Of a DNA stretch of 23,543 nucleotides, positions 1 to 3,000 are shown piece by piece (position 1 is the stretch's first letter; every line of letters starts with the position of its first letter). The DNA is from a virus (taxonomy: Duplodnaviria; Heunggongvirae; Uroviricota; Caudoviricetes). The position numbers were made by a program. Location: IMG/VR virus record IMGVR_UViG_2734482776_000003; one strand, written 5' to 3'.

Positions 1-3000
1 TCCGGGTCTGCCTCAGGATTCCCCGCCACAAAGTTCACCGCATCAAGAAAACGCGCATACACCCGGCGACGGACCACCGTGGCACCCACCAGGCTCTGCA
101 AATCCTCCGCCATCCCGGTGACAAGGCCGAAAAGATTGGACACTGTCAGCGACGGGCGGGCACTGCTGCCCTTTCCGTTCATCTCAAAGCCGCTGCCCTC
201 TATCGGGTACGCCTGATATTCACGCCCCTGCCAGGTCACCGGCTCCCCTTTTTCATTCAGCTCATTGCAGAAAAAATACCGCTCACCGCCCTGCACCGTC
301 AGGTCGATTTCCCAGAGCACCACCCGCGGTGACTGCTCTGACTTAACCGACTCGTTCAGGCTTTCTTCGTGAATATCCTGCATATATCCGCCCATAAAAA
401 AGGGGCGCAACCGCGCCCCGAACAATAAAAGTCCAATTTAAAATAAAACCAATAAAGGTAATAACAGAAAGTTAAATCAACACATGCCAGATGGCAATTG
501 CTGATCGCAGTGACCAATGAAAACTGTGTTTTCATTGATACAGGCCGCCAGTAAGGGCTGACGGCCCGTATTTATTATACTTATCAGCAATAATCAGAAC
601 TGATAAGTCATACCCACAGCAACGATATTATCTGTCGCAACACCGGCTTTCCGGGTAAATTCACTTTCCTCAATCAGGTTAATTTTATAATCAACATGGG
701 TGGACATATTCTTGTTAAAGTAATAAGTCGCACCGACATCAATATATTTAACCAGATCCTGATCGCCATGGTTCACACCACCAACCATAACATCCTGTCC
801 TCGGGACTGAAGGTAGGCCAGAGACGGACGCAGACCAAAATCAAACTGATACTGAACAACGGCTTCGATATTCTGAGCTTTATCCGCAACACCTTGATCA
901 CCAAAGGTCGTCATATTCTGGGTTTCTGAATACACTGCTGCCAGATACAGGTTATTGGCATCATATTTAAGACCAGTTCCCCAGAATTCAGCATGTTTAC
1001 CTTTTGCAACGCTGCCGGAATCAACGACCACTTCTTTTTCAGTCACATCCCCAGTTAAAGGATCTTTGATTTCAATAGTTTTGCTACCATTCAGTCCCTG
1101 AACCTGCTTATTGGTACGATCTGACTTGGTATACGCAGCCACAAAACCAAAACCATCAAACTCATAGCTGGCTGAGAAACCATACCCATCACCATTGGCC
1201 TTCTGGAGGTCATCGCGCTCATTTTTGCCCTGATACTGCGCCGCAAAATTCAGACCATCAACCAGCCCAAAGAAATCTGTATTACGGTAAGTCAGAACTC
1301 CGGAAGTTCGGGCAGTCATAAAGTTATCGGTCTGAGTCCAGCCATCACCACCAAACTCTGGCAGTACGTCAGTATATGATCCGACATCGTAAGCAATACC
1401 GTAGTTACGTCCGTAATCAATGCTACCAACATCAGCAAATCTCAGACCTGCAAATGCCAGACGGGTTTTATTTCCCGCGGAACCTTCAGATTCCGTTTTG
1501 TTACCAGAGAACTGGTATTCCCACTGACCAAATCCGGTCAGTTGATCATTAATCTGCGTTTCGCCTTTAAAGCCGAGACGAGCATAAGTCTGATCTCCGT
1601 CATTACCTTTATCATCCGAGAAGTAATGCAGAGCGGTTGCACGCCCGTAAAGATCCAGTTTATTACCATCTTTATTATAAACTTCTGCTGCCTGCGCCCC
1701 CGCAGCAAACATCACTGCAACTGCTACAGCAGAAAGTGCCACTGTCATTTTTTTCATGATTTAATCCTTATTTAAACTGAACTATTCATGCATTCAGATG
1801 TCATGAACAAAAATTAAAATATTTTAATACAAATTCTTAGTTCAATTTATATTACGTAACAAAATGTAAATGCAAGATCGATTTCGCACTTTCTGACAAG
1901 ACAGATTAAAAATAATTAACAACTAAACACTAAAGAATGATTTATAGGATAATTCTCATCTAACTACCTGCTCTATCGTGCAACTGAAATCACTGTACCG
2001 GGCGTTATCCGTAATACTCCACTCCCGGCACACCACCCTGACCGTCCGGTTATGTTTCGGGGGCTTCCACAAAAAAGCCCGGTAACCACCATGCCATGAC
2101 AGAAACGCGGACAGTGCCTCCCGCTCAGCATCCGTTGTCACCCGAAAAACCACCTGAAAGGTCTTCAGTTGCGCATTCAGTCCTGCCGGACGACGCTGCT
2201 GATAACCGTCGCCAAACTTCACCGTCACCACCGACGGTTTCTCCGTCACCTGCATCCCTTCCCGGGGACACCAGTGAAGGGTCTTAATCTCATCCACTCA
2301 GCATTCCTCCGTCACGACGCATGGATAACATCACCGCCTGTACCCGCTGGTCAATCAGTTGCACAAGGGTGCCCGCCGCTTCCGGCCCTATCTGCCCGTT
2401 AGCGCCGTCATTCTGAATGGCGATGTGGTACACCGGAGAATACACCAGACCCGCACTGCCGTTCATACTGCCCACCGCACGCACGCCGAGTGAACCATCC
2501 GCTGCCCGGGTCAGGGGCATTATGGCTTCAGGTCCGGCCTCCCCCATCAGCCCTGCCCCTTTTGCAAAGGCAAAGTACGTGGGCGTGTCCACAATACTGT
2601 TACTGTATGCACTCAGGTTTGCCGAGGTATAAACGCCGCCTTTTGCATTTGCCACCGCGCCACCCAGCCAGTTGCCTATACTGCCGAAAAATCCTCCTGC
2701 ACCGGACATACTGTTTGCCGCCATCTTAATGCCGTTGACAATGGCCGCATTCATAAGAACTTTTGATATTTCCTGCAGGATTGATGCTGCCCAGCTGCGC
2801 CATTCCACTTTATTTCCGTTCAGCATCTCCGTGATGTTATTTACCATCCCTGAGATACCGTCTGTCGCAAGCTGTGCTACCTGTGAAGCGTAATCTGATG
2901 CGCTGTCCACCCAGTTGCTGACCCCCTCCTGCAGTCCTTTCTGCCAGTCCGCACGTTGTTCATCCGACCTGGCATAAAAAGCTTCCTGCTCTTTCAGTCG

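Follow-up and report, generated by a model that had tools for sequence, protein, structure and literature searches.

We analysed a 23,543-nucleotide (nt) stretch of a virus record (IMG/VR IMGVR_UViG_2734482776_000003; the whole stretch is called the window below), which belongs to a lambda-like E. coli prophage and carries a porin cassette between tail genes M and L. Our analysis indicates that this cassette, situated within the tail operon of the lambdoid prophage, is probably a porin-replacement moron akin to the Lc/NmpC-IpeX system. Four things set it apart from the known Lc/NmpC-IpeX module: it always lies between M and L, its porin forms a clade of its own with a hypervariable loop, its leader carries an OmpR box of the ompC type, and its ipeX-like 3' untranslated region (UTR) is divergent. 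The 3' UTR is probably the most informative part of the cassette. A first-pass annotation had passed over the 175 nt between the porin stop codon and the terminator; they are a conserved structured RNA element related to ipeX. All genes of the region lie on the minus strand, and the layout of the cassette and its neighbours is as follows (window positions).

3-383, minus: 5' part of the minor tail gene L, with its start ATG at 383-381; runs off the left window end (Pfam Phage_tail_L, 2.2e-46 on the 127 amino acids (aa) inside the window)
384-395, minus: cassette end that is right-hand in the direction of transcription, with the L ribosome-binding region (AUGGGCGGAUAU); 12 nt between the terminator and the L ATG
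396-419, minus: intrinsic terminator GGGGCGC-GGUU-GCGCCCC plus U6, found by terminator scan; 7-bp all-GC stem at 419-402, T6 at 401-396
419-593, minus: 3' non-coding stretch of 175 nt, from the porin stop to the GC hairpin
394-596, minus: whole ipeX-like 3' UTR element, from the porin stop codon through the terminator end
594-1757, minus: porin gene, 387 aa, intact (Pfam Porin_1, PF00267, 5e-143)
1758-1955, minus: AT-rich leader/regulatory region of the porin, 198 bp
1956-2297, minus: minor tail gene M (Pfam Phage_min_tail, 3.2e-33)
2290-5556, minus: tape-measure gene, the upstream neighbour of M (Pfam lambda-family match)

Insertion at the M-L junction

The first-pass annotation had described a full-length porin gene with a signal peptide, behind an AT-rich region of about 200 bp unlike the tail genes, in an insert at 384-1955 between M and L. 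Comparison with related phages supports this description except at one boundary. Phage BP-4795 and many Stx phages show similarity to the M and L flanks only, with M and L contiguous (the match covers 827 bp of the record, or 34% of a 2,400-nt query), and at such empty sites the M stop overlaps the L start as TGATG. Our survey of the junction took in close relatives only, namely 79 viral contigs that have an L gene and in which M is closely homologous. M and L abut in 55 of these contigs and are separated by a porin cassette of ~1.5-1.58 kb in the other 24, and no other cargo was found at the junction in any of the 79 close relatives. With 55 empty junctions, there is no essential gene routinely held at this position, as the proposed insertion had presupposed.

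Against empty sites whose M is 99% identical, 9 nt (GGTGAACTG) have been swapped for 1,582 bp, and the cassette therefore spans 384-1965: the left end stands, and the right boundary moves outward from 1955. The last two M codons (1959-1965 region) are cassette-derived, VVN-stop becoming VVR-stop, while L is unaltered from its ATG and identical to empty-site L from ATGCAGGATATTCAC onward. Neither terminal inverted repeats nor a target duplication were found at the cassette junctions in this comparison, and a transposon-like insertion was rejected on that ground. GC content is 0.57-0.62 in the flanking tail genes and 0.28-0.48 in the cassette (0.41-0.48 in the porin gene, 0.275-0.305 in the leader), and the cassette brings its own terminator.

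Known lambdoid morons include lambda lom and bor and HK97 gp15. As in these, an extra gene of foreign composition with its own terminator stands between conserved neighbours and is absent from close relatives. The present cassette differs from them in its cargo, a porin plus a putative riboregulatory 3' UTR, and in that it breaks the M/L overlap and supplies a new L ribosome-binding region. Of the promoter-gene-terminator architecture that had been proposed, the foreign insertion, the deviant composition and the terminator are thus borne out; the promoter is taken up with the leader.

The first 2.4 kb of the window are 100% identical to several complete E. coli chromosomes, including that of strain EH41, in which the matching region is a lambdoid prophage integrated at ompW and adjoining the trp operon. 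Farther right, colinearity between the window and EH41 is lost, and EH41 therefore serves as context only. Among 5,426 complete E. coli genomes, the complete M-porin-L arrangement was found in 91, the 5' flank in 93 and the 3' flank alone, down to 72% identity, in 111; cassette carriers make up ~2%. Many of the listed carriers come from cattle, food or human cases, and some are named O113:H21 or O22:H8. The position of the cassette is constant in viral contigs with a porin at least 85% identical: L lies downstream in 31 of 31 and M upstream in 30 of 31, the last contig starting at the porin. M beside the cassette ranges from 48% to 99% identical, and the tape-measure genes are of differing types. 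One M-L cassette was found in Citrobacter farmeri.

The cassette also occurs where the tail operon has been lost. In two remnants bordered by IS66 elements, the porin open reading frame (ORF) and both flanks survive but the tail genes do not. Remnants of this kind are seen at loci L005 (E. coli DETEC-P1056), L169 and L170, which have the porin and both flanks beside IS66, a Rop gene and a type VI secretion system (T6SS) Tle1-like effector, and their tail genes are gone or pseudogenes. The M-L moron setting does not extend to every relative of the porin: of the basal ones, P0044 and P0025 belong to non-phage islands and P0024 to another phage context. P0044, a 378-aa porin at the base of the clade (386 member sequences), lies at 4001-5137 in L180 and L181, in a non-phage island adjoining sulfatase and TonB-dependent receptor genes.

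A structured 3' UTR related to ipeX

The structure of the 3' UTR was assessed in an alignment of ten distinct versions of the 175-nt region, which resolves into three hairpins and an unpaired core ahead of the terminator.

538-571, minus: hairpin 1; 14 bp, loop CCCUUA; 4 pairs with compensatory double changes; 98.6% of alignment cells paired
515-537, minus: hairpin 2 (CAAUGAAAAC-ACA-GUUUUCAUUG); 10 pairs, 4 compensatory double changes; 99% of cells paired
476-505, minus: hairpin 3 (AUCAGC...GUUGAU, with an inner UGCC/GGCA extension); 6 pairs, 1 compensatory; 98% of cells paired; present in the minimum-free-energy (MFE) fold
444-476, minus: conserved single-stranded core (UUUAACUUUCUGUUAUUACCUUUAUUGGUUUUA), a putative antisense seed, between hairpin 3 and the terminator

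Of the 37 pairs in total, 9 have changed on both sides, and 98.9% of the alignment cells are paired. In 500 column shuffles the observed values were never reached, slid partner columns were only 34-48% paired, and the element folds with z = -7.7 against shuffles. The terminator stem is invariant in the ten variants and present in both the MFE and the centroid folds. Apart from the terminator, the most conserved block is the core, which makes up the first ~30 nt of the AU-rich unpaired stretch (GAUUUAAYUUUC.U.UUAUUACCUUYAU). Between hairpins 2 and 3, nine unpaired bases (GGUCACUGC, 506-514, minus) are invariant in 10 of 10 variants and are a possible processing or protein-binding site. A 59-aa ORF at 356-535 within the 3' UTR was rejected as spurious, as it has no Pfam match and its ATG, located in the hairpin-2 stem, is lost in other variants.

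In the K-12 prophage DLP12, the region that follows nmpC is laid out in the same way, with three hairpins ahead of an AU-rich stretch and a terminator (GGGGCG...CGCCCC), and both regions contain the motif UUCUGUUAU..UUACC.UUUAUU. The hairpin sequences of K-12 ipeX differ too much to be aligned with those of the window by eye; only the core and the terminator can be. Homology was detected with a covariance model that was built from M-L-type UTRs only and searched over 760 kb. Besides the window, the model gave five matches with E <= 3e-5, each of which starts at the stop codon of an NmpC/Lc-type porin gene.

L171: 51.3 bits, E = 3.7e-8
L131: 42.2 bits
K-12 DLP12 (ipeX), 2366-2537: 41.7 bits, E = 4e-6
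L119: 40.0 bits
L008: 37.9 bits

The best of these matches, at L171 (3001-4403), follows a 406-aa porin that is 62% identical and lies in an unrelated phage context (ddrB-ParB, SSB, lysozyme); its UTR bridges the M-L type and the ipeX type. No such match was found after chromosomal porin genes of other species in the 760 kb searched. Covariation and the covariance search together mark the 175-nt 3' UTR as a structured, conserved RNA and a homologue of ipeX, the 3' UTR of nmpC/lc. PA-2 reportedly carries an IpeX copy as well. An Rfam scan of window positions 1-2600 at E <= 1 gave no match, and the K-12 ipeX region is likewise blank in Rfam; since Rfam has no IpeX model, the empty scan of the window says little.

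Weak covariance matches were also seen upstream of ompC-type porin genes in many Enterobacteriaceae (E = 0.02-0.6, none individually significant). In L028, L073, L055, L040 and ~15 other loci they fall near 3570-3740 on the minus strand, upstream of the porin gene at 4001. This is probably the position of micF, which fits the similarity of the seed to MicF described below.

Predicted pairing with ompC and ompF

IpeX, which is carried on DLP12, has been reported to be made from the porin transcript and to repress OmpC and OmpF; a review describes its mechanism as resting on more than complementarity alone. We used the unpaired core of the window element as a query against 70-nt target windows (-40 to +30) round the starts of K-12 ompC, K-12 ompF and the phage porin, as the whole UTR against 160-nt targets had yielded meaningless full-length duplexes. 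The core pairs with ompC at -37..-4 with a predicted energy of -28.5 kcal/mol, compared to -12.5 +/- 2.9 for dinucleotide shuffles, none of which (0/200) reaches this value. Ranked against 2,400 genomic windows, among them the antisense strand of the element itself, the duplex falls in the lowest 0.08%. Pairing with ompF is predicted at -20.3 kcal/mol (reached by 4 of 200 shuffles) and would cover the ompF Shine-Dalgarno sequence. For the start region of the porin itself the energy is -11.5 kcal/mol, which is at the 43rd percentile and equals background. In 5,326 of the 5,426 E. coli genomes, the start region of ompC is conserved at 99% identity or more.

The cores of three related elements gave a similar picture. 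Energies for ompC and ompF were -21.5 and -23.2 kcal/mol for the G8-type core, -23.4 and -26.1 kcal/mol for the L171 core, and -26.7 and -18.6 kcal/mol for K-12 ipeX, and all three cores are at background level on the phage porin start region. In K-12 ipeX, AACCUUCUGUUAUAU is predicted to pair with ompC -21..-7 and CCUUUAUUU with ompC -31..-23; the window core pairs with ompC over a longer stretch. The L171 core contains a 14-nt perfect complement to the ompF Shine-Dalgarno region, and its CAUGUUAUU stands against the ompC start codon.

The core also resembles two small RNAs (sRNAs) of the host. Its GUUAU-UACCUUUAUUG...UUUUAUUUU matches the MicC 5' seed GUUAUAUGCCUUUAUUG...UUUUAUUUU, and on ompC the MicC site (-34..-14) falls inside the one predicted for the core. 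Unlike the MicC seed, the window seed lies inside a 3' UTR and not at the 5' end of an independent sRNA, and a MicC control scored 125 bits in Rfam, where the window gave no match. Similarly, UUAACUUUCUGUUAUUACC of the core agrees with UUAACUUUAUUUAUUACC of MicF, which is encoded upstream of ompC and represses ompF, at 24 of 30 aligned positions. The window element differs from MicF in its weaker predicted pairing with ompF (-20.3 compared to -27.4 kcal/mol) and in having no MicF-like body. By sequence and structure together, it was assigned to neither the MicC nor the MicF family (Rfam, window 1-2600, E <= 1). The core does have what is expected of a base-pairing sRNA, namely a conserved unpaired seed with predicted complementarity to the ribosome-binding region of a target, and the pairing energies amount to a clear prediction of ompC/ompF regulation.

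It is conceivable, but unlikely, that the cassette is an ordinary porin moron without a trans-acting RNA. On that account, the hairpins only stabilise the mRNA or aid termination, and the complementarity to ompC and ompF is a by-product of the shared ancestry of AU-rich porin regulatory regions. Stable 3' hairpins do commonly protect bacterial mRNAs, and a mechanism of IpeX that is not based on complementarity alone would be compatible with such an account. In addition, the leader has a 17-mer in common with the ompC promoter (see below), and other parts of the cassette could likewise come from porin loci. However, mere stability elements need no unpaired block, and here the unpaired core is the most conserved part of the UTR outside the terminator. 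Moreover, four diverged lineages keep strong ompC/ompF pairing in partly different registers, none of them pairs with its own start, and the homologous ipeX RNA has been reported to repress both host porins. We therefore favour a riboregulatory 3' UTR.

The porin leader

The leader was aligned as 21 distinct 5' flanks. Across these divergent flanks a series of blocks is invariant or nearly so and the DNA between them is variable; Lc and NmpC have a similar AT-rich leader with shared blocks. The elements recognised in the window leader are listed below.

1758-1955, minus: conserved blocks GTCTT..CA.AAAGTG; TTTACAT.T...AC; ATTGAA; AATATTTT; GTT.A.GACA; GAA.AGTTC; AAGGA (Shine-Dalgarno)
1851-1876, minus: OmpR-box-like element CTTGCATTTACATTTTGTTACGTAAT; its first 17 nt match the ompC C1 region at 17/17 positions
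1845-1840 and 1821-1816, minus: promoter candidate 1, TTGAAC-N18-TATTTT; start ~52 nt before the ATG
Nearer the ATG than candidate 1, minus: promoter candidate 2, TTGTTC-N18-AATAGT; start ~17 nt before the ATG
1765-1769, minus: Shine-Dalgarno sequence AAGGA of the porin, 7 nt ahead of the ATG; invariant in the 21 aligned variants

The first 17 nt of the OmpR-box-like element (CTTGCATTTACATTTTG, 1876-1860) are identical to a string upstream of K-12 ompC, which we take to be where the OmpR C1 site lies. This string is unique in the window, with 0.01 occurrences expected by chance. Among 258 loci, the 15-mer TTTACATTTTGWWAC was found only in these cassettes and upstream of K-12 ompC and of five Enterobacter/Serratia porin genes; in the cassettes checked it stands at -113 from the porin ATG. 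While the window leader has an exact ompC C1 box, that of nmpC is degenerate. OmpR control of the porin cassette can reasonably be inferred from these sequence matches. Since the leader holds the ompC C1 box, the promoter is probably OmpR-dependent, and the ompC C1-to-start spacing, if applicable, would favour the proximal candidate.

We infer a porin promoter in the leader from the conserved promoter-like blocks, the OmpR box and the survival of the cassette in decayed prophages. Alternatively, the porin could be a passenger of the late operon that has no promoter of its own and is made only lytically, in the Q-antiterminated tail transcript, for example as an envelope change or as decoys at lysis. 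The porin gene is co-directional with the tail operon, and late transcription must cross it. Furthermore, a simple sigma-70 scan of the leader found no match at the consensus threshold on the coding strand, and the matches on the plus strand were at chance frequency. We nevertheless regard a purely late porin as improbable. A strong terminator at the cassette end would be of no use to such a gene, and the leader has retained conserved hexamers that resemble a promoter, together with an OmpR box of the ompC type. Decayed prophages still hold an intact cassette after loss of the late operon, far from any late promoter.

The porin protein

The Porin_1 match covers the full length of the profile (positions 1-337 of 337), and the protein has the features of a general porin: a cleavable signal peptide (aa 1-23, cleavage motif AQA/AEV), a 16-strand barrel, an L3 constriction loop with PEFGG (LPEFGGD at aa 132-138) and a C-terminal aromatic residue (TYQF). 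A search of the PDB returned 48 solved porins at E <= 1e-97 (range 1e-131 to 1e-97), with alignments that cover the whole barrel except for a gap at aa 220-252. The AlphaFold model (predicted local distance difference test, pLDDT, 74) has 16 strands and a long helix-containing loop at 117-153. The gap falls within extracellular loop L5.

996-1118, minus: codons of L5 (aa 214-254); hypervariable, with a ~30-aa insertion relative to solved porins

In the AlphaFold model, L5 lies between strands 203-213 and 255-267 and has a predicted extra beta-hairpin. Within the clade, the barrel is well conserved, L5 carries indels of 0-32 aa and a second indel is found in L6. The variation of L5 fits the pattern that would be expected for a surface-exposed target.

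We placed the porin in a neighbour-joining tree with K-12 OmpC, OmpF, PhoE and OmpN, Salmonella OmpD, Citrobacter/Enterobacter porins and NmpC/Lc. It forms its own clade within the OmpD/NmpC/Lc group, away from OmpC, OmpN, PhoE and OmpF, and this clade is sister to NmpC/Lc and OmpD combined and not nested inside NmpC/Lc. The first-pass annotation had asked whether the gene groups with Lc/NmpC or with chromosomal OmpC; the tree places it on the side of NmpC/Lc/OmpD. Lc (of PA-2) and NmpC (of DLP12) are likewise prophage-borne general porins; they belong to the same superclade, are 71-73% identical to the window porin and have the same type of signal peptide (MKKLTVAISAVA...), which is unlike the OmpD or OmpC type. 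What separates the window porin from them is its own clade and its long hypervariable L5. The nearest chromosomal relatives, Salmonella OmpD and Citrobacter/Enterobacter 'OmpC/OmpD' porins (66-73% identical), differ in having a signal peptide of the form MKLKLVAV..., in not being prophage-borne and in that the covariance search found no ipeX-like element after the gene. GTDB, searched with one genome per species, yielded no close chromosomal counterpart, the best match being 67% identical.

In RefSeq the porin gene is named ompC ('porin OmpC'), and the protein barely passes the NCBIfam OmpC subfamily model (504.9 bits, cut-off 484). We rejected an OmpC orthologue, as the protein clusters with NmpC/Lc/OmpD, is 64% identical to K-12 OmpC and is encoded in a prophage tail operon and not at the ompC-micF locus. 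A recently captured chromosomal ompC without phage-specific adaptation, to which the RefSeq name and the subfamily score might point, is very improbable given the tree, the phage-type signal peptide, the lack of any porin more than 67% identical in the species-representative genomes, and 5' and 3' flanks that accompany the gene and share homology with the nmpC/lc flanks.

Proposed function and consequences for the tail operon

The scheme that we favour is porin replacement on the Lc/PA-2 model, in which a new porin comes in while OmpC and OmpF go down; it is also the simplest. In this scheme, a promoter in the AT-rich leader, probably OmpR-dependent, would yield a monocistronic porin mRNA in the lysogen. 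This mRNA would end at the strong terminator, leaving the downstream tail genes silent, and the porin would be exported via its signal peptide and then assembled in the outer membrane. The 3' UTR would pair over the ompC and ompF ribosome-binding sites in the manner of MicC and MicF and so lower host porin synthesis, acting either within the full-length mRNA or after processing, the latter as reported for IpeX. The phage porin would thereby replace OmpC/OmpF on the surface and alter the binding of phages, colicins and antibodies, and perhaps permeability. During lytic growth, Q-modified RNA polymerase would pass the cassette and its terminator, and L would start from the ribosome-binding region that the cassette supplies.

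Several points weigh against this scheme. Apart from the empty sigma-70 scan of the coding strand, H-NS has to be considered, as it often silences foreign AT-rich DNA such as this. The duplex energies given above omit the accessibility of both target and sRNA. In the MFE fold, but not in the centroid, ~572-588, just past the porin stop, is paired with ~448-464 of the putative seed; such pairing could mask the seed in the full-length mRNA until processing. Finally, the last 250 residues of J in the EH41 prophage, the receptor-binding part, are closest to lambda J (75% identity), so there is no sign of a phage that adsorbs to OmpC. Self-exclusion through OmpC is for this reason unsupported; any exclusion would hit other phages or colicins, and the benefit may alternatively be antigenic or permeability-related.

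The first-pass annotation had placed a terminator at 396-419 directly before L. The terminator is supported by the scan and by the folds, and 12 nt separate its U-tract from the L ATG. At occupied sites, AUGGGYGGA...AUG precedes L, and ATGGGYGGA is kept in most cassette variants. On this sequence comparison, the cassette end replaces the M-L translational coupling of empty sites with a putative new L ribosome-binding region. A further ATG at 393-395 lies four codons before the annotated L start and shares its frame in the window (AUG GGC GGA UAU AUG) but not in the G8-type cassette; it is therefore probably not the real L start.

As long as the phage remains a prophage, the terminator would shield the tail genes from the porin promoter. 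Terminators of this type do not stop Q-modified polymerase in lambda; L to J should therefore still be expressed late, and a dependence of L on antitermination would follow from lambda biology rather than from the sequence. The EH41 prophage encodes a Q antiterminator, which fits late read-through of the terminator. The arrangement differs from that of nmpC, which lies between Q and the lysis genes (quuD/essD) and is oriented against late transcription, whereas the M-L cassette is oriented with it.

Other features of the window

A few observations concern the window outside the cassette. Comparison of 17000-23543 with L001 and L176 showed that colinearity with EH41 ends in the lysis region, with shifts of ~250 and then ~1,180 bp. 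A 654-aa ORF at 20045-22009 is the counterpart of an EH41 gene annotated as a SASA-family carbohydrate esterase. In the area of 15856-16221 and 16595-16936, the EH41 record has an HNH endonuclease gene beside that for the small terminase; a short gene labelled 'TonB family protein' stands between its lysis and packaging modules. Among the neighbouring genes, the EH41 annotation lists no stx; tRNA-Ile, tRNA-Arg, TolA-like and helix-turn-helix genes are present.

Implications

A broader reading, which we offer tentatively and at slightly below an even chance, is that the 3' UTR riboregulators of the NmpC/Lc lineage (IpeX, M-L and L171 types) are combined mimics of MicC and MicF that pair with the ompC and ompF ribosome-binding regions, and that the M-L type adds an OmpR box for a full takeover of the porin slot. 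If so, IpeX would act by ordinary antisense pairing, despite its description as relying on more than complementarity alone. The four diverged UTR lineages point to a concrete ompC pairing site that overlaps the MicC site, which makes the mechanism of IpeX mutationally testable; in the window, UUAUUACC is a segment of the putative seed and UUAAAUCC an altered version of it. The RefSeq label 'ompC' on the gene, for its part, may lead resistance surveys and the typing of porins astray.

Many phages, colicins and antibiotics enter the cell mainly by way of porins, which are also major antigens of its surface. Under the takeover reading, the phage porin would be made exactly when OmpC would be, with OmpC silenced. 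With a variable-loop porin in place and OmpC/OmpF silenced, the phage susceptibility, permeability and antigenicity of the lysogen would be changed.

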